Shown one piece after another: positions 617 to 9,917 of a DNA stretch of 9,917 bases. A program made the position numbers and the translations under genes. Origin of the DNA: a virus. Positions within the stretch are counted from its first letter, which is position 1. Each line of letters opens with the position of its first letter. A model generated the notes under the pieces. It ran no database searches and was not told where the DNA came from. It saw nothing but the letters and a program-made list of their open reading frames with translations. The stretch is from UHGV virus genome UHGV-0207821; one strand, given 5' to 3'.

Positions 617-817
617 CAATATCCCCACTTAGTTAAGGTTTCAGGTTGGTGTGTTGGTGTTATCTTTCCCTTTTTATTCATAGAGATAGAGCGAAAAACA
701 AAACCACCACCACCAACCCGAAAAGGCTCATAAATAGCGAAAATCCGCAAGGTCGCCGCCCCGTAGCCTGCCGGATCGCCGGAAAGGACCCGCCAGCCAG
801 AACGGGCCCTAATTTCA
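617..817 (-). other. Lambda-type cos site: cosN 12-mer at 750-761 plus cosB-like repeats
   Basis: Plus-strand AGGTCGCCGCCC at 750-761 is the exact reverse complement of the lambda cohesive end GGGCGGCGACCT. The minus-strand sequence just after it (TGCGGATTTTCGCTATTTATG) closely matches lambda CGCGGGTTTTCGCTATTTATG (R3 region, from memory). AGCGAAAA repeats at 690-697 and 736-743; inverted CACCAAC-rich blocks at 644-660 and 704-719 flank an AT-rich core. Confidence 0.75.
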
Positions 818-1201
818 TCAACCAATCAGCTTATAGCGACCATCCCGTGCATTGCGACGTACACGCTCAATCTTGAGGCATAGCGCCGCATCTGGCTTTT
901 TGGGGACAGGTACGCGGCAATATTCAGAAGCTCGAGGAATATTGTTTATCCAGTCGATCACTTCACTTAAATACCAGGCTTTACGCCCTTCCGTAACCTG
1001 TACGCGTTCGGGGAACTCTCCACGAGCCTCAAGGTTTAGCAATGTGCGACGGCTAAGGGTAGTAAGTTCCATCACCTGATTCATATCAACAAGGCGTTCA
1101 CTTAAACGCATTTTGTCAGCAATAGCCTTTAATTCCTCTACTGCTGGATCCGGATACATCATTTCGGCAATTGGCTTAAGGTCATTGTAATGATTCTGCA
1201 T
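818..1201 (-). CDS. AlpA/MerR-like helix-turn-helix DNA-binding protein, function unknown
   Basis: Central motif MELTTLSRRTLLNLEARGEFPERVQVTEGRKAWYLSEVIDWINN has the AlpA/excisionase-type HTH pattern. ATG at 1201 is preceded by AGGGGGA. Lies between the gpD-like gene and cos. Confidence 0.7.
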   Translation of the reverse strand: MQNHYNDLKPIAEMMYPDPAVEELKAIADKMRLSERLVDMNQVMELTTLSRRTLLNLEARGEFPERVQVTEGRKAWYLSEVIDWINNIPRASEYCRVPVPKKPDAALCLKIERVRRNARDGRYKLIG

Positions 1202-3503: not shown

Positions 3504-3694
3504 CCCCACTTTTTCGCCTCACTTTTTAAGCTCCCCACATGATTTCCAACCTTGTTTTTTTGTGATTCTAATATGTTGTTTTTCAATGTGTTTTTTATTC
3601 CTCACTTTTGAGCCTATATACAGATTGAAAAGTGAGGGGCGCGGTTGCTTTTTGTTCAGTTCCTGCTATCCCCTCACTTTTGCGCCTCACTTTT
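3504..3694. repeat. Iteron array with AT-rich core, candidate replication origin
   Basis: CCTCACTTTT at 3517-3526, 3600-3609, 3672-3681, 3685-3694; variant CCCCACTTTT at 3504-3513; inverted copy AAAAGTGAGG at 3628-3637 forming a palindrome with the 3600 copy. T-rich stretch 3551-3599. Immediately 3' of the replication helicase gene. Confidence 0.55.
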
Positions 3695-5109
3695 TACAGT
3701 GGGCGCACATCATCACCGTCAATAGCGATAACGCCGTCTCTTTCCAGCTTGTACAGCCAGCGCCGGAAGTTTTTCATCTCATACCCCAGCTTTTTCATAT
3801 CATCGCGCAACAACGGGATAGTGCATTTATCGCCGCGCTGTGTGCGTGACCGGATACAGCCCCATAGTGCGGCGTGATTCTCCGTCTTGTTTCCGGCCTC
3901 CTCGATGCGCTCCAGTTCAACGGGTGGGCGCGGCTTATCCACAACCACCAGCGACGTGATTAACTCCTTGTCAGCGTCGGTAAAAAGCTCCACCACACGT
4001 AAATCATATGCAGCCTCTTTCAGTTCCTCCGCGTCCTTCATTTTGGTGCAGGAGATAACCAGGGCCTCACTGTCCGCGCCTTCGCGGCGGATCCGGTACT
4101 CAGCGTCCAGAGATGCACGAAATGCACTGGAACCACGCGCCCCTTTTGTTTCATCCTTGCCGGAATGGTGAACCACCAGCACCGTGGCCCCTGTGCGTCG
4201 TTTCAGTTCGTCACATCCACGGATAAACGCCCCCATATCCCGCGCGTCATTTTCATCATTACCGCCAAAGCAACGCGCCAGCGTATCCAGAATAATCATG
4301 CGTACCGGTTTACCCGTTTCCCGTTCAACCTGGCGGGATGCGATAACCATTTCATCAACATCAAACTGGGCTGCAGGAAAAATCGGGCGGTTTACCAGGT
4401 ACAGATTTTTCACCCGTTCATCATTAACGATTTCCCATGCCTTGATACGGCGGGGGACACCAATGCCACCTTCACCGACAACATACATCACCGAACCATG
4501 CGCCACCCTGCGACCTCCCCAGTGGCGACCCGTGGCAACATGACACGCCCAGGAACACGCGAGGAACGATTTATAGGAACCGCTCGCGCCGTATGTGCTG
4601 CACAATGAATTAGCCGGAATCACGCCCTTAACGACATAATCAAGCTGTGTGTCGTACCCTGCAGATCCAATGCTCATTGGTAGCGTGGTTTTTCGCTGGC
4701 TGTATTGCTCGTCAGTAAGTATTTCCCCGCGCTCTGCCTGTTCGCGGATCCGTTGCAGGTAGTCGTGCCAGTTCTCCAGCTTCTGACTGTGCATTCCCTC
4801 AGGGTAATAATTCGCATCCCGTACACCTGCCGCCGCCAGCTTTTGCCCGATGGCATTAATATTTGACGGCTTGATGTGGCCTGCCTTGTACAGTCGGACA
4901 CAATAGCGACCATCGTCGATAATTTTCAGGCCTGCCAGTTCGTCAAGCTGGCTGTCTCCCAGCCATACAGGCGGAACATTGTCGCCAGCAAGTCGCCCGT
5001 CCTGCTCCTGCCATTGTTTCGCGTGCGCCCAGGCATCACTACCCGCAAAAATAATGACTTCGGTCATTTTGTCGTAAGGCTGTTTTTTTAAGTTCGGTGC
5101 GCTTTTCAT
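3694..5109 (-). CDS. Replication initiation helicase, RepA/DnaB-like RecA-fold ATPase with C-terminal winged-helix domain
   Basis: 471 aa. Walker A-like YGASGSYKS, Walker B-like RMIILDT, then VLVVHHSGKD, typical of RepA-like (AAA_25) helicases. C-terminal LGYEMKNFRRWLYKLERDGVIAIDGDD looks winged-helix. SD AGGGG before ATG 5109; ATGA overlap with the upstream ORF. Confidence 0.8.
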   Translation of the reverse strand: MKSAPNLKKQPYDKMTEVIIFAGSDAWAHAKQWQEQDGRLAGDNVPPVWLGDSQLDELAGLKIIDDGRYCVRLYKAGHIKPSNINAIGQKLAAAGVRDANYYPEGMHSQKLENWHDYLQRIREQAERGEILTDEQYSQRKTTLPMSIGSAGYDTQLDYVVKGVIPANSLCSTYGASGSYKSFLACSWACHVATGRHWGGRRVAHGSVMYVVGEGGIGVPRRIKAWEIVNDERVKNLYLVNRPIFPAAQFDVDEMVIASRQVERETGKPVRMIILDTLARCFGGNDENDARDMGAFIRGCDELKRRTGATVLVVHHSGKDETKGARGSSAFRASLDAEYRIRREGADSEALVISCTKMKDAEELKEAAYDLRVVELFTDADKELITSLVVVDKPRPPVELERIEEAGNKTENHAALWGCIRSRTQRGDKCTIPLLRDDMKKLGYEMKNFRRWLYKLERDGVIAIDGDDVRPL

Positions 5110-5405
5110 TTCTTGCCCCTGAATCCGTTAATCATGGTTTTCAGCTTCTGGATGTTTGCCCGTGCCCTGGCGTTGCTGGTGGGCACGTTATGCGGCGCGG
5201 TCTGTACCAGAGAAAAATCACACCGGAACTGATAAACAGGCATCACGCAATCATATTCGTAACCTTCACGGCGGTAGATTACGCGCCGTTCTTCCACGCC
5301 CTTAATCATTACCGTGCCGCCGTACTGGTCGCGGTAAATATCACCGCGCGTAAATTTAGGGTGAGTGTTGCCACTGGCAGTTAAGCCAGAATATTTAAGT
5401 TTCAT
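5106..5405 (-). CDS. Hypothetical protein, translationally coupled to the replication helicase
   Basis: 99-aa ORF; SD GGAGAA upstream of ATG 5405; stop overlaps helicase start. No family recognised. Confidence 0.55.
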   Translation of the reverse strand: MKLKYSGLTASGNTHPKFTRGDIYRDQYGGTVMIKGVEERRVIYRREGYEYDCVMPVYQFRCDFSLVQTAPHNVPTSNARARANIQKLKTMINGFRGKK

Positions 5406-5410
5406 TATTT

Positions 5411-5644
5411 TTATTCTCCGGTGTGCTGTTCTTTATATCTGTCGTGCAATAGATCTATTTCTTGCAGTTCCATTATTACAGGCTCAAGAAGCGTTATTAA
5501 TGCCGTGGCAATTCTTGATTTTTGTTTGTCGCGTTCATTGTCGCCAAGTGTTTCAAGCCATATGCGCAATATTTCCAGCATGTTTTCACTGTGAGAAAGT
5601 GCAAGAAATGCGCGGTCTATTGTTTCGTGGTAAATATCACGCAT
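5411..5644 (-). CDS. Hypothetical small protein
   Basis: 77-aa ORF in the same operon, 8-nt start/stop overlap with the upstream ORF. No recognisable motif. Confidence 0.5.
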   Translation of the reverse strand: MRDIYHETIDRAFLALSHSENMLEILRIWLETLGDNERDKQKSRIATALITLLEPVIMELQEIDLLHDRYKEQHTGE

Positions 5645-5870
5645 GGCTTACATCCTCAGGAAATTTTCTTCTGTAACGCGCCTCTGCCACATATTCCGCA
5701 TAATCGGCGGCGATATTCAGTACATCAAATCCCGTTGATTTATATTCTCTCGTGGAAAGTAAGAAAAAAGCCGCTCTAATAAGCTCTGGCATTGACGAAA
5801 GCGCATCAGCCGCATCATCAGGAACGCCGGAAAATTCCTGTTTCAGGGAATTAAAACGATCATCACGCAT
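5637..5870 (-). CDS. Hypothetical protein, downstream half of a possible poly-G frameshift pair
   Basis: 77-aa ORF whose ATG (5868-5870) lies 2 nt from a G9 tract on the coding strand; the upstream ORF ends just after the tract in another frame. Confidence 0.45.
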   Translation of the reverse strand: MRDDRFNSLKQEFSGVPDDAADALSSMPELIRAAFFLLSTREYKSTGFDVLNIAADYAEYVAEARYRRKFPEDVSHA

Positions 5871-6103
5871 AACCCCCCCCCATTTTCACAATCAGCAATC
5901 AGGATGGCTTTGGCCTCATTCAGCGCCATATCCGCACTAAGTTGCATAACCGCCAGCGAATGAGGAACGAAAGCCCCGGCATATTCTGTTTCACTGGTAG
6001 CGTGCTTATGCGCCCTGTCCGCGATAACAGAAATATCAATCGGCGCATCAATCAGTGTTTTGATTGCTTCGGCGGCTGCGTCCGGACGGGTGTTATTGCA
6101 CAT
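5843..6103 (-). CDS. Hypothetical protein, upstream half of a possible poly-G frameshift pair
   Basis: 86-aa ORF; the G9 tract encodes the GGG in ...ADCENGGGLCVMIVLIP near its C-terminus. A 10-G tract would fuse it in frame to the 5637-5870 ORF. Confidence 0.45.
   Translation of the reverse strand: MCNNTRPDAAAEAIKTLIDAPIDISVIADRAHKHATSETEYAGAFVPHSLAVMQLSADMALNEAKAILIADCENGGGLCVMIVLIP
5873..5881 (-). repeat. Homopolymeric G9 tract (C9 on plus strand) at the junction of two ORFs
   Basis: Nine consecutive C on the plus strand at 5873-5881, inside one ORF and directly upstream of the next ORF's ATG. Confidence 0.9.
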
Positions 6104-6461
6104 GGTGCACCTCCTGGCGAATACGGGCGGCGAATACCATCACGCAGCCAGCCGGGGATTGCTGACGTGCTTCCTGTTCGCTGGTGGCCTCGATGTGAAT
6201 CACGCGCGGTTGTGCCGTGCTCAGGGCGATAAAACGCCAGATAAAATTGTTCTCGCATTTCTGAATAAACAGCGTGTTTTCTTCGCGCCCTTTCCATGTT
6301 GCCGAGATATAGCCCATGTCATTGAGCATCTCGCAGGCATCCACCAGCGTATCAGCGGCTACGTGTACAGTGTTTTTACCGTCAGCCATGCAATCACGGT
6401 GCACCGCCAGGAAGGTGTATATAAATTTAGGGTGAGTTTGGGTATGCTGTGTTCCAGCCAT
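6093..6461 (-). CDS. Hypothetical protein, first gene of the leftward operon
   Basis: 122 aa from ATG 6461 (MAGTQHTQTHPKF...), SD GAGGT about 8 nt upstream. Normal amino-acid composition, unlike the junk-like translation further upstream in the same frame. Confidence 0.5.
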   Translation of the reverse strand: MAGTQHTQTHPKFIYTFLAVHRDCMADGKNTVHVAADTLVDACEMLNDMGYISATWKGREENTLFIQKCENNFIWRFIALSTAQPRVIHIEATSEQEARQQSPAGCVMVFAARIRQEVHHVQ

Positions 6462-6669
6462 AATCGTTACCTCATTTAACGGTTTGGTTAGAAGCCCGGT
6501 TAGTGTTCGCGCACTGCCGGGTTTCGTCGTTTTTATGAATCGCTCATTGTGAGATACATAGCGACCCCCATGTGAGATACACATTATATTGTGGTGATAT
6601 ACATTGCAAGTGTTTTTATATCTCACTTTTGTGTATAGTGATATACACATAACAAATTGGTGATTAACT
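6462..6669. promoter_or_regulatory. Divergent regulatory region with operator-like repeats
   Basis: Four same-orientation copies of GTGA(G/T)ATACA at 6549-6558, 6572-6581, 6593-6602, 6639-6648; inverted partial TATCTCAC at 6619-6626; palindrome GTGTATA-GTGA-TATACAC at 6631-6650 just upstream of the RHH gene. Lies between divergent gene starts at 6461 and 6670. Confidence 0.55.
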
Positions 6670-6972
6670 ATGTCTGTATACAAAAATGCAAAATCGCAAA
6701 TGACAACGATCAGGGTTCCCCACGATGTTATGGAGGGCATGGAATCCGTAAAACTGGACGGCGAAAGCAACGCCGGATTCATAGTAACCGCCATGCGCGG
6801 TGAGATCGCTCGCCGGCAGGCAGAAGGAAGAGGAGAAAATCCCTTGGTTTCTTCGCTCGATGCACTGGCGCAGGTGGAAAAAATCGGTGTCAAAGCAGCC
6901 GAGGAGATCGGGCAACTCGTCACCGTCGCGCGTGAAGAACTCCAGCGGCGCAAGGCCAAAGAACCAGAGTAA
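6670..6972 (+). CDS. Ribbon-helix-helix (CopG/Arc-like) transcriptional regulator, candidate element repressor
   Basis: N-terminal MTTIRVPHDVMEGMESVKLDGESNAGFIVTAMRGEIARRQ fits the RHH strand-helix-G-x-S-x-N-helix pattern. SD GGTGA 6 nt before ATG 6670. Charged, helical composition. Confidence 0.6.
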   Translation: MSVYKNAKSQMTTIRVPHDVMEGMESVKLDGESNAGFIVTAMRGEIARRQAEGRGENPLVSSLDALAQVEKIGVKAAEEIGQLVTVAREELQRRKAKEPE

Positions 6973-7029
6973 TCACCATCAGCGCCGTGGTGTAAGGTAT
7001 TACGGCGCATTGCTATGCAGGACAACACA

Positions 7030-7203
7030 ATGACCGATAAAGAATTGACCAAAACATTATCACCGGCACGGAAAAGACGGCGCAGAAAGATAGAGCATGA
7101 ATCAGAAAGATTCGCGCCATGTGCTTTTGCTCTTGAGAAATTCCTTAAAGAGCACAGGAAAAAGCTCTCGTTGCAAACCTTGGAACGAACCAAATCTGAC
7201 TGA
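7030..7203 (+). CDS. Small basic protein, hypothetical
   Basis: 57 aa from ATG 7030 (SD AGGA 7 nt upstream); very basic (RKRRRRK). Co-oriented with the RHH gene and followed by a terminator. ATG 7015 is an alternative start. Confidence 0.4.
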   Translation: MTDKELTKTLSPARKRRRRKIEHESERFAPCAFALEKFLKEHRKKLSLQTLERTKSD

Positions 7204-7676
7204 TCACATTGCCCACCAGCCGCAAATGTGGCATTGTTGGTGATGCTCATGCGTTGGGGATAACGTGTAGCTTGTGTCGAGGGGCCACCGTAGCGGGTGG
7301 CCTTTGTTTTGCCTGTTATCCGGCAATTGTGGCGCTTCGCCACACGGTTGATATAATCCCACTGCTCAGATTCATTTTTTGCGCAGTAGGTTAATTGTTC
7401 ACAAAGGCGCTCCGGCAACGGGGCGCTTTTTGTTTTTATTAGTTTGTAGAAACCTGACTCAGAGATAATGCTCATATTCTGATTGCCGTCAGGGGGGTAA
7501 GTTAAATTTACTCCCTTTTCATCAAGCATCTGCAACGCTCTGGCGTTAATAATATTGGTTTCACTCCCGCCAATAAGGCCGGAAATAACCGGAATAATTT
7601 CAGCGAAATTTTGCAGATTCTGGTTTTCAGGCCGAACGAAGCCCCGCCCCTGTACAGGCGTATATCCAGTATTCAT
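7204..7676 (-). CDS. Possible Bro-N/antirepressor-like protein; 3' end undefined because the frame has no stop until 6093
   Basis: N-terminal ~125 aa from ATG 7676 look protein-like; NMSIISESGFYKLIKTKSAP resembles the Bro-N/antirepressor signature (weak, from memory). Beyond about 7300 the translation turns Cys/Ser-rich and runs antisense through the RHH operon and the operator region. The 7204 end is arbitrary. Confidence 0.3.
7283..7310 (+). terminator. Rho-independent terminator of the plus-strand regulator operon
   Basis: GGCCACC (7283-7289), loop GTAGCG, GGTGGCC (7296-7302), then TTTGTTTT (7303-7310). Confidence 0.55.
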
Positions 7677-7728: not shown

Positions 7729-7917
7729 TTAGTGAACTGCCTCGCGGCTGTCCTTCCATGCCAGAACTTCGGATAAAGACCAGCCAACGGAACGACCACC
7801 GAGTTTACGCCGTGATGGGAATTGTCCAGTCTTCTCCAGGCGATACCGACATGAGCGGCTCAGGCCTGTAAGTTGCTGACATTCTTTTTCACGTATAAAG
7901 CGATCTGTGCTTAACAC
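7729..7917 (-). CDS. alpA: AlpA-family (excisionase/Vis-like) transcriptional regulator
   Basis: LSTDRFIREKECQQLTGLSRSCRYRLEKTGQFPSRRKLGGRSVGWSLSEVLAWKD is a classic AlpA HTH. Start proposed at GTG 7917, preceded by AAAGGGGGA. The ORF-track ATG at 8025 would add a low-complexity T/N/P-rich extension. Confidence 0.7.
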   Translation of the reverse strand: MLSTDRFIREKECQQLTGLSRSCRYRLEKTGQFPSRRKLGGRSVGWSLSEVLAWKDSREAVH

Positions 7918-8285
7918 AATTCCCCCTTTGTTGTTTCTTAAAGAGTCATTGGGTGGATTATTGGGTTGGGTTGTGTCGGATTGTGTCAGGGTGTTTATGG
8001 AATGGCAAACACTGGTGGCGGTCATTTTACAGAAGTGGGGGTAGTGAGAATAAAAATCCTTTTAATTCATTATGATGTAAAGGCATAAAATTCTGTTTTT
8101 ACGCCTTTTTTACATGTTTTTAAGAGTGATTCGCCAATGTACAAAAAGCCAGTAAAACGACTGAAAATCAACTTTTTAGGGTGTCAGTCAGATGATAATC
8201 AAGTTTGTTCCAGATTGTTCGCCGTTGTTCGTCGTGGTGTCTCGTTGTTTCACGTTGTGTCCGTTCTAAAAAATCGCAAAAAAAA

Positions 8286-9533
8286 TTATATTTCTCTGGC
8301 TATTGGCAGTGTGGTTACGTTTTCGTGAGTGCCTGCCAGTATCTCTAACCGCTCTGTCCACATGTCCAGCGCATTACGTTTCGCATCGAGATAACGGGAG
8401 TGGTTATAGACTCGCTGCATCCCTGGCATCTGGTGAGCGGTGAGTTGTTCGACAATATGCGGATCCACGCCTAAATCGTTCAGCATCGTGGTAAACGTGC
8501 GCCGTATATCGTGTAGTGACCAGTGCGGATGGTTTAATTTTTTGTGCATGAATCTGCCGTATTGCGACACACTGGCTTCCTGTTTCAGTTCCCCGAGTAA
8601 TAGCCCTGTGTGTCTGTTCTGCTCCACCAGCTGCGTGACGAACGGTAAAATGCTTTCCGGTATTGGCCTGAATATGGCGACCTTCGTTTTGCTGTGCTCT
8701 TTCGGTACTGTCCAGAGCATTTCCTTAAAATCCCACTCCCTGATCTCCGATAATCTCAGTTCTCCGGTTCGGCAGCCGAACACAATCAGGAGGCGGATTA
8801 GTGCGCTGTAGTAGGGCGGGAATATTTTTTTATCCAGCGCCTGTAATAATTCGCCAAGTTCTTTGTTGCTCAGCACGCGTTCGCTTATGCCTGGTTTTTT
8901 GCCAACGTCCACCACGTTAAGATCATCCAGAACGTTACTGACTGCGTAGCGACGTTTACGGCAGAACTTAAGCGCCTGTTTACACGCCTGCATCATGTGA
9001 CCAGACGTTACAGGGGATTTTTTGCGTATCCGGTCAAAACAGGCCAGCCAGTGACGTAACTCGCATTTATCCAGTGGCATATTGCCAATATGCTGTATGA
9101 CGTGATTATTCAGGCGGCTTTTCAGGCATACGTAATCGACACGGTTTTCCTTTACGTGCATTTCCAGCCAGTAGCTGATCGCATCACCCACCGTTACCGG
9201 CTTTAGTGCTTCCTGTATGGAGTAATTAAGCTCATGGCGTGGATTTTTTCCTTCTGCCAGCCATGCGCGACACTGTGCCGCTTTTTCCCTGGCTGCTTTC
9301 AGGCTCAGATCAGGATAATTTCCCAGCTTCAGGCGTTCCGGTGATACCTGGCGTCCAGCTCCTGCTCTGTAGGTGAAATACCAGGTTAACAAGCCGCTGG
9401 TGGAATGCCTGACGCTCAGGTTTCCACCGTCATTAAGAAATGTGGTTTTTGGGGCTGGTGTGCCGTTGATTTTTCTTAGCTGTGTATCGCTCAGTTTGTT
9501 AAGTGCTCTGCTCATAATTTTGAATCCGGTCAT
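8286..9533 (-). CDS. int: Tyrosine site-specific integrase, P4-family type
   Basis: N-terminal LSDTQLRKI...DGGNLSVRHS...LLTWYFTYR typical of P4-family integrases; C-terminal catalytic region with HDIRRTF and VYNHSRY (tyrosine nucleophile). ATG at 9533; the ORF track starts at GTG 9536, and ATG 9515 is also possible. Confidence 0.9.
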   Translation of the reverse strand: MTGFKIMSRALNKLSDTQLRKINGTPAPKTTFLNDGGNLSVRHSTSGLLTWYFTYRAGAGRQVSPERLKLGNYPDLSLKAAREKAAQCRAWLAEGKNPRHELNYSIQEALKPVTVGDAISYWLEMHVKENRVDYVCLKSRLNNHVIQHIGNMPLDKCELRHWLACFDRIRKKSPVTSGHMMQACKQALKFCRKRRYAVSNVLDDLNVVDVGKKPGISERVLSNKELGELLQALDKKIFPPYYSALIRLLIVFGCRTGELRLSEIREWDFKEMLWTVPKEHSKTKVAIFRPIPESILPFVTQLVEQNRHTGLLLGELKQEASVSQYGRFMHKKLNHPHWSLHDIRRTFTTMLNDLGVDPHIVEQLTAHQMPGMQRVYNHSRYLDAKRNALDMWTERLEILAGTHENVTTLPIAREI

Positions 9534-9538
9534 CACAA

Positions 9539-9779: not shown

Positions 9780-9873
9780 ACCGGCGCAGAGGAGACAATG
9801 CCGGATTTAAGACGCGGATGCACTGCTGTGTGTACTGTAGAGTCTGGCGGATGTCGACAGACTCTATTTTTTT
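9780..9873 (+). ncRNA. mcaS: About 94-nt sRNA with four GGA motifs, McaS(IsrA)-like
   Basis: Promoter-to-terminator unit with no ORF. 5' stem-loop CCGGC...GCCGG; GGA motifs in single-stranded or loop contexts (GAGGAGA, CCGGATT, GCGGATG twice); terminal hairpin plus U7. Sequence matches my recollection of E. coli McaS, a CsrA-binding sRNA; not verifiable here. Confidence 0.55.
9838..9873 (+). terminator. Rho-independent terminator of the sRNA
   Basis: TAGAGTCTG (9838-9846) pairs with CAGACTCTA (9858-9866); 11-nt loop containing GGA; followed by TTTTTTT (9867-9873). Confidence 0.7.
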
Positions 9874-9917
9874 ATGCAGTTTTAACTTTGCAGATAGCCG
9901 CATTCTCGCCGGAATTG

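Follow-up and report, generated by a model that had tools for sequence, protein, structure and literature searches.

The prototype phage-inducible chromosomal island (PICI) of Gram-negative bacteria is EcCICFT073, in which an AlpA homologue is the activator of the island cycle (Fillol-Salom et al., PMC6092414). The protein ECs1581, or RgdR, encoded in O-island 51 (Sp7) of Escherichia coli O157:H7, activates LEE1 and type III secretion and represses motility; c1493 of CFT073 has the same activities, the R20C variant of RgdR is inactive, and the purified protein binds DNA without specificity (Flockhart et al., PMC3378721). In ECOR61, cell death is triggered by phage orf24, from the T7-like ocr accessory region, and transposon suppressors of this death mapped to an Icd-like gene of 366 nt and to two small genes next to it. 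Rebuilding the effect required all six linked genes of the prophage locus, a primase gene among them; without the Icd-like gene no death occurred, and its product was named as the probable effector of cell death (Silas et al. preprint, 10.1101/2023.04.06.535777). Here we compare with these systems a block of five small open reading frames (ORFs) in a 9,917-nt stretch of viral DNA, UHGV virus genome UHGV-0207821 (the window). Judged from its gene content, the window is an EcCICFT073-type PICI integrated in E. coli and an ordinary member of a known element. An integrase, an AlpA-family regulator, a replicase and packaging-redirection genes were found in the canonical order within about 10 kb, without lysis or tail genes. 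Gene content and synteny agree with those of EcCICFT073 and Sakai Sp7, and related islands are present in many strains. The gene order is int - alpA - divergent ylcI-like - icd-like - ORF4 - ORF3 - ORF2 - rgdR - replicase - ssb - capsid/decoration - terS, and the block with its immediate neighbours comprises the following features.

3694-5109, minus strand: RepA-family helicase, the replication gene (AAA_25; PF13481 3e-44, phrog_2850)
5106-5405, minus strand: ORF1, 99 aa, RgdR orthologue with DUF4222
5411-5644, minus strand: ORF2, 77 aa, conserved PICI hypothetical protein
5637-5870, minus strand: ORF3, 77 aa, C-terminal half of a split protein, with its own ATG
5843-6103, minus strand: ORF4, 86 aa, N-terminal half of a split two-domain protein
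6093-6461, minus strand: ORF5, 122 aa, Icd-like
6670-6972, plus strand: YlcI/YnfO-family gene, divergent, the rightward arm of the switch (NF041551 5e-20, phrog_6522 2e-59)

A preliminary description of this DNA had presented the block as five tightly coupled leftward ORFs of 77-122 aa, placed in a satellite between the switch and the replication gene, and both the coordinates and the PICI gene order bear this out. ORF5 overlaps ORF4 by 11 nt, ORF4 overlaps ORF3 by 28 nt and ORF3 overlaps ORF2 by 8 nt; ORF2 and ORF1 are separated by 5 nt, and ORF1 shares a 4-nt ATGA with the replicase gene. A Shine-Dalgarno (SD)-like sequence is present at each of the five ORFs. Pairwise ratios of non-synonymous to synonymous substitution rates (dN/dS), calculated against homologues from about 100 related loci, were 0.29, 0.34, 0.28, 0.24 and 0.13 for ORF1 to ORF5, respectively. 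Because these values lie between 0.13 and 0.34, the five ORFs can be taken as coding and under purifying selection. For the minus strand, the terminator scan listed no candidate site from 6461 down to 5000, which fits the continuity of an operon. The explanation that we favour for the block, together with the working model set out below, places the five ORFs at the promoter-proximal end of the early (replication) operon in a PICI of the EcCICFT073 type; we put its probability at about 0.65.

The same description recognised no family for the five proteins and saw in them candidates for novel proteins. Neither view survived comparison with family collections. All five ORFs match PHROG families (1e-32 to 1e-49) and have orthologues in the prototype EcCICFT073; ORF1 matches DUF4222, ORF5 matches the Icd-like model NF033153 and belongs to the P1 Icd family, and hundreds of E. 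coli genomes in RefSeq carry annotations of this block. Names already exist for two of the five genes, and one of them has been studied by experiment; the block is a copy of genes of the best-studied Gram-negative PICIs and opens no new class. Parts of the block DNA were matched in 1772 of 5426 complete E. coli genomes, that is, in about one third of them, and the role published for rgdR concerns virulence genes. The block DNA had no match (0) in the phage collection. When deposited phages were searched with tblastn, ORF5 recovered one record, a 16.5-kb induced island, and ORF1 four weak ones; because deposited phages gave so few matches, the block belongs to satellites and not to their helpers. 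A scan for ORF1 in the collection holding one genome per species returned only two loci.

By full-length comparison ORF1 is an orthologue of RgdR. It matches Pfam DUF4222 (PF13973) with 85.2 bits (cut-off 27; E 2e-24) as well as phrog_285, and it is identical to CFT073 c1493 in 91 of 99 residues (92%) and to Sakai ECs1581 in 78 of 99 (79%). Flockhart et al. (PMC3378721) defined orthologues by full length (about 99 aa) and more than 77% similarity to ECs1581, and ORF1 falls within this definition. The RGD tripeptide is intact at residues 20-22 (FTRGDIYRD); it is kept in 72 of 120 clusters of DUF4222 homologues, the others having NGD, CGD or other variants. ORF1 thus shares with ECs1581 its length of 99 aa, the DUF4222 domain, the position of the RGD and a location directly upstream of the island replicase. 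Unlike E. coli O157:H7, the host of the window has no known locus of enterocyte effacement (LEE), and an activity of ORF1 on type III secretion or motility is predicted by orthology only. No relative of solved structure was found by sequence for ORF1 or for ORF5.

The DUF4222 gene overlaps the replicase gene by 4 nt regardless of the type of replicase, be it an AAA_25 helicase, a D5_N/DUF5906 primase or a DUF927 protein. The N-terminal part of the replicase of the window, about 135 aa (residues 1-138), shares 54-66% identity with the corresponding part of the different replicases found after rgdR in other islands (primase, DUF927), and rgdR and this N-terminal domain appear, from their sequences, to travel as a unit. 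These observations could also be explained if RgdR, and possibly ORF2, were replication accessory proteins that aid the initiator or helicase at the origin, the effects of RgdR on host genes being side effects. Such a role would agree with the fact that rgdR always abuts and overlaps the replicase gene and co-varies with the shared N-terminal domain, with the presence of an ORF2-family gene before rgdR in divergent islands, with the non-specific DNA binding of the purified protein (PMC3378721) and with the Tudor-like domains at the C-termini of the helicases UvrD and PcrA. However, no homology to a characterised loader or origin-binding protein was found, and the association may reflect modular inheritance only; we consider the accessory role unlikely. 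None of the alternatives discussed here and below is mutually exclusive with the working model of an early operon.

At the promoter-proximal end of the block, ORF5 is, by its domain match, an Icd-like protein of the P1 Icd family with an extra N-terminal half, and inhibition of cell division is predicted for it. It matches NF033153 with 79.7 bits (cut-off 25; E 1.2e-22), the Icd domain being formed by the C-terminal residues 73-116. P1 Icd itself scores 52.6 bits (3.4e-14) on this model, and direct blastp aligned it with ORF5 at 40% over 42 aa (E 1e-5). The N-terminal 72 aa of ORF5 are 57-60% conserved in Salmonella homologues; hhalign gave a weak in-register alignment of this part with the Icd domain (E 8e-4, probability 24%), and it is likely to be a second Icd unit derived from a diverged tandem duplication. 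A 121-aa form of the protein (96-99% identity) occurs widely in E. coli and Salmonella, and its gene always stands directly after the divergent ylcI-like gene and before the variable cassettes. The start at 6461, which gives the 122-aa product, is correct: conservation among the homologous proteins begins at MAGTQ, and the sequences upstream of MAGTQ are unrelated. The family detectable with ORF5 is small, with 157 representatives in 1.84 billion. Two matches in the representative library (P0366 and P0374) were rejected as spurious, being eukaryote-like chitin-binding repeat proteins.

ORF5 resembles P1 Icd, encoded by the icd-ant operon, in that it has the same NCBIfam domain, is specified by the first, translationally coupled gene of an operon and has, over its translation start, a candidate small antisense RNA, the start of P1 icd being the target of such an RNA (C4). 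It differs in that the similarity covers only 42 aa (at 40%), in that ORF5 has a second, N-terminal unit and in that the gene downstream of ORF5 is not ant.

The locus of ECOR61, as described, likewise has six genes, with an Icd-like gene of the same size as ORF5 in the first place and a replicase in the last. In contrast to the window, the replicase there is a primase, and the products of the two other suppressor genes (61 and 63 aa) are similar to ECs1578 and ECs1579 of Sakai. The window has ORF4 and ORF3 in their place, and no similarity to either Sakai protein was found there. This is the one functional report that ties such an Icd-like gene to phage-triggered cell death. By analogy, the ECOR61 experiment points to growth arrest or death of the host cell and not to an action on the helper.

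The ECOR61 data could also mean that the operon is, in the first place, an abortive-infection or superinfection-exclusion system, which would respond to a phage protein by killing or arresting the cell through the Icd-like protein and thereby stop the spread of the phage, with replication of the island as a secondary function. The size and architecture of ORF5, which agree with those described for the ECOR61 Icd-like gene, speak for such a system, as do the suppressors in AlpA, Icd-like and primase genes that the same preprint (Silas et al.) reports in a P4 satellite. On the other hand, no PADLOC model was matched (0 families for all nine proteins at E <= 0.1), and in every island the block keeps its synteny and coupling with the replicase gene, which is what a life-cycle operon would show. 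Moreover, the reconstituted effect was "muted" according to the Silas et al. preprint, and uncontrolled replication of a PICI upon forced induction also kills the cell (PMC6092414). We regard this alternative as rather improbable and retain the early-operon reading, in which arrest of the host cell would accompany replication of the island. The preliminary description had suggested roles in helper interference, derepression or anti-defence for the five proteins; nothing was found in support of these, the PADLOC result being negative and the ECOR61 experiment pointing to the host cell.

Opposite the beginning of ORF5 the plus strand carries the following features.

6454-6539, plus strand: candidate SymR-like cis-antisense RNA, covering the ORF5 start codon (6459-6461) and SD sequence (6470-6473)
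6443-6448, plus strand: -10-like box TATGCT
6495-6521, plus strand: terminator hairpin, followed by a U-rich tail

The Rfam model of SymR (RF01809) matched positions 6456-6528 of the plus strand with 35.7 bits (E 7.8e-4), below the gathering score of 61, the matched stretch extending over the SD sequence of ORF5 and 6 nt into the gene. In island L104 the model matched at the same relative position with 37 bits, again below 61. The symR gene of K-12 overlaps symE by the same 6 nt. As in the SymE-SymR system of K-12, an RNA of about 80 nt would start 6 nt inside the coding sequence, cover the start codon and SD sequence and fold into two hairpins, the second being a terminator. The likeness extends to the sequences AGYCATAA, TGRTTAG and GTGTT-GCGCAC, and the -10 box lies 7 nt upstream of the RNA start in both. 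The systems differ in the partner of the RNA, which is SymE there and an Icd-like protein here; furthermore, ORF5 heads an operon and no LexA control is evident in the window. In the Pfam and NCBIfam searches no SymE-related family (AbrB-fold toxin) came up for ORF5, for which only Icd-like models match. P1 differs in another respect, since its C4-type RNA comes from upstream and from the same strand, in contrast to the cis-encoded, opposite-strand RNA proposed for the window. A P1-type C4 RNA upstream of the Icd-like gene was considered and rejected, as no Rfam match was found.

The structure of the candidate RNA was analysed in an alignment of 25 distinct variants. RNAalifold predicted two hairpins with 17 pairs, six of which show compensatory changes. 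Paired cells amounted to 98.4%, as against 88.6% in shuffled alignments, and the covariation score was 0.327, as against 0.179; in either case none of the 500 shuffles reached the observed value. To decide on the strand, the same calculations were compared for both: 98.4% of the cells are paired on the plus strand and 81.4% on the mRNA strand, a difference that is due to 72 G-U cells, and the minimum free energy (MFE) is -34.7 kcal/mol (z = -5.7) versus -19.3 kcal/mol. The U-rich tail after the second hairpin is likewise present on the plus strand only. The structure belongs to the plus strand. In addition, all Icd-like variants retain, near codon 5, a CAT (His) codon with A as the next base, despite N-termini as different as MAGTQHT, MRNHT, MVAVNHI and MAIKEHS, and this conserved CAT-A reads on the opposite strand as TATGCT, TATGAT or TATAAT. 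A covariance model built from the alignment placed the element opposite the start of the Icd-like gene, in antisense orientation, in all PICI loci tested, CFT073 and Sakai among them. It thus appears, from the position and conservation of the element, that a small antisense RNA holds the Icd-like protein in check. This would provide a concrete mechanism for silencing a toxic gene in a resident island. We found no description of the antisense RNA in the searchable literature, and we regard it, together with the poly-G tract described below, as one of the leads of value in this DNA.

An RNA with the 6-nt geometry of symR/symE, lying over the ribosome-binding site and start codon, is also what would be expected if ORF5 and the RNA formed a type I toxin-antitoxin (addiction) pair that stabilises the island in the chromosome, and the conservation of its structure with covariation and its presence in all PICI loci tested agree with this as well. 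Against such a pair, ORF5 heads a long operon and is no stand-alone cassette, it is not a homologue of SymE and its toxicity is putative, and an integrated island hardly needs post-segregational killing. An addiction function is, in our opinion, very doubtful, and control of an operon-borne Icd-like protein by the RNA is preferred.

The interior of the block is formed by ORF4, ORF3 and ORF2, conserved PICI hypothetical proteins whose PHROG families have no assigned function. ORF4 matches phrog_5146 and the N-terminal half of phrog_2512 and is 46% identical to its CFT073 homologue. ORF3 matches phrog_24341 and the C-terminal half of phrog_2512 and is 88% identical to CFT073 over 68 aa. Their family matches indicate that ORF4 and ORF3 are the halves of one 154-aa two-domain protein, split at a poly-G linker. 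Fused proteins of 150-155 aa form more than 100 clusters, some of them present on dozens of contigs. The split occurs at the following site.

5873-5881, minus strand: poly-G tract G9 at the ORF4/ORF3 junction, encoding a Gly linker and serving as an SD-like run for ORF3

The length of the tract varied among 52 related loci (G7 in 14, G8 in 21, G9 in 13, G10 in two and G11 in two) and differed even among loci with identical 250-nt flanks on each side. With G7 or G10, ORF4 and ORF3 are fused through a Gly linker (ENGGVMRDD). With G8 or G11, ORF4 ends in GGYA and a stop codon, forming a ATGCGTGA stop-start overlap. With G9, as in the window, ORF4 acquires the frameshifted tail GGGLCVMIVLIP (LCVMIVLIP) before its stop. 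The interrupted tracts GGGGGTGG and GGGGTGGG lock the G8 frame. Since ORF3 has its own ATG just past the tract, both domains are made in every frame, which would explain why all three frames persist. The tract could be hypermutable or phase-variable, as its length differences suggest, and the split offers a cheap marker for possible phase variation in a mobile element of E. coli. An AlphaFold2 model of the ORF4-ORF3 fusion (pLDDT, the predicted local distance difference test score, of 58) was all-helical with a disordered linker and too poor for a fold search. ORF2 matches phrog_2196 (8e-42), a PHROG family of unknown function, is 90% identical to its CFT073 counterpart and is homologous to Sakai ECs1580 (blastp E 2e-8); a gene of this family (ECs1580 in Sakai) stands directly upstream of rgdR in divergent islands.

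A check for hypervariability across related elements, proposed in the preliminary description, was carried out by walking upstream from rgdR in 97 loci, and variability was indeed found: the interior is a mosaic, the stretch from the Icd-like gene to rgdR occurring in at least eight arrangements, a pattern expected of exchangeable accessory cassettes. The architectures include the order of the window, the same order with an inserted member of the 121-aa or 66-aa family, Icd-ORF2-rgdR, Icd-(121 aa)-rgdR and the Sakai set. The two ends of the block, formed by the Icd-like gene and rgdR, stay constant, while islands exchange the cassettes in its middle. The alternative cassette is located as follows.

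Loci L006-L015 and L098-L107 (e.g. L006, 6359-6724): 121-aa protein with two repeats of about 55 aa, between the Icd-like gene and rgdR

The 66-aa single-repeat form of this cassette often lies directly upstream of DUF4222. No Pfam match is on record for either the 121-aa or the 66-aa form. EcCICFT073 itself shares with the window a divergent ylcI-like gene, an Icd-like gene, small ORFs, DUF4222, a replicase, ssb, capsid E and a decoration protein, and it too has the antisense RNA at the Icd-like start; in addition to the identities given above for ORF1 (92%), ORF2 (90%), ORF3 (88% over 68 aa) and ORF4 (46%), that of the C-terminal domain of ORF5 is 76%. Unlike the window, it has one extra small ORF (ECs1579-like), a single-domain Icd of 66 aa, a primase-type replicase, PerC and a G8 tract.

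Mosaic cassettes in at least eight architectures, encoding proteins without known function or solved relatives and coexisting in fused and split forms, might be taken to mean that ORF2-4 are helper-manipulating or anti-defence effectors, tuned to different helpers or hosts. Yet their dN/dS ratios of 0.24-0.34 indicate ordinary purifying selection without an arms-race signature, and the same cassettes occur nearly unchanged in many islands, with parts of the block in a third of E. coli genomes. The known interference function of EcCICFT073 resides elsewhere (Rpp; PMC6739421, which makes no mention of the ORF2-4 genes), and the structure model was too poor to suggest a target. An effector role of ORF2-4 is thus doubtful, and we prefer to regard them as exchangeable accessory modules of the early operon.

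These data suggest the following working model. In the quiescent island the operon would be off, and the SymR-like antisense RNA would block leaky translation of the potentially toxic Icd-like protein. A phage cue would raise AlpA, by which leftward transcription would be switched on, such activation being known from EcCICFT073 only. The resulting burst of mRNA would outrun the antisense RNA, and, as P1 Icd and the ECOR61 locus suggest by analogy, the Icd-like protein would halt cell division or growth. RgdR, presumably acting as a small Tudor/KOW-like non-specific DNA binder, would alter transcription and/or assist replication, and the replicase would copy the island, ORF2-4 serving as exchangeable accessory modules.

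Several points weigh against this model. The dependence on AlpA is carried over from EcCICFT073, as are helper induction and transfer (PMC6092414), and the published phenotypes of RgdR concern host genes. The similarity to P1 Icd is short (42 aa); ORF5 is equated with the ECOR61 Icd-like gene by size and description only, and the two other suppressor genes of ECOR61 (61 and 63 aa) are cassettes absent from the window. The antisense RNA scores below the Rfam gathering score, its putative promoter is a poor match to the consensus and the consensus scan did not detect it, and in a reciprocal test of homology to SymR the covariance model did not recover K-12 symR at E <= 0.01. Finally, the differences in poly-G length could partly be homopolymer sequencing errors.

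A more far-reaching form of the model may be imagined, in which the tandem Icd-like protein is a toxic switch guarded by the SymR-related RNA and released by a phage cue through AlpA, and in which ORF2 and the poly-G-toggled ORF4/ORF3 fusion set which phages or conditions lead to arrest and which to transfer. We think it improbable that all of this holds; if it did, a third of E. coli genomes would carry, within satellites, an unrecognised RNA-controlled, phase-variable abortive or induction module.

The remaining features of the regulatory region and of the element are these.

6549-6647, divergent regulatory region: GTGAKATACA, five copies about 22 nt apart, one inverted with one mismatch
7015-7203, plus strand: 62-aa ORF
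7204-7676, minus strand: antirepressor-like remnant, the first about 45 residues resembling the N-terminus of an AntA-type antirepressor, followed by a Bro-N-like stretch
7280-7305 and 7403-7430, plus strand: two strong terminator-like hairpins of 10 and 12 pairs with T-runs, 3' of the ylcI-like and 62-aa genes and inside the antirepressor remnant
7729-8025, minus strand: AlpA-family regulator (PF05930 9e-18)
8286-9536, minus strand: integrase
9780-9875, plus strand: full-length McaS/IsrA small RNA gene (118 bits), marking the chromosomal flank of the host
Downstream of the replicase, minus strand: small ORF, SSB, capsid-E-type major capsid protein, lambda-D-type decoration protein, second AlpA-like helix-turn-helix (HTH) protein (next entry), Nu1-type small terminase
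818-1201, minus strand: second AlpA-family HTH protein, 127 aa, between the decoration-protein and small-terminase genes
630-735, minus strand: near-perfect long hairpin between the second AlpA-like gene and the small-terminase gene (MFE -37.9 kcal/mol, z -5.4)

The sequence GTGAKATACA was matched six times in the window, five of the matches falling within 6549-6647, with 0.81 expected; none of 200 shuffles reached six. The repeats are probably operators of the switch. A 527-aa ORF on the minus strand (6093-7676), which has an antirepressor-like N-terminus and contains ORF5, was rejected as a gene: it runs antisense through two supported plus-strand genes and two plus-strand terminators, and conservation begins only at MAGTQ. 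Over-long calls of Icd-like proteins are common in databases (190-212 aa, up to 500 aa), with no extra Pfam domain or only Ash. No Pfam match was found for the 7204-7676 stretch; AntA-type antirepressors occupy the equivalent position in other islands, and the stretch looks like a truncated remnant left by module exchange. The second AlpA-family HTH protein (818-1201) may regulate late functions or packaging. Because the McaS gene lies at the flank of the island and the closely related island L001 adjoins abgR, the mcaS-abgR region is the probable insertion site. The long hairpin at 630-735 gave spurious matches to miRNA models on both strands.

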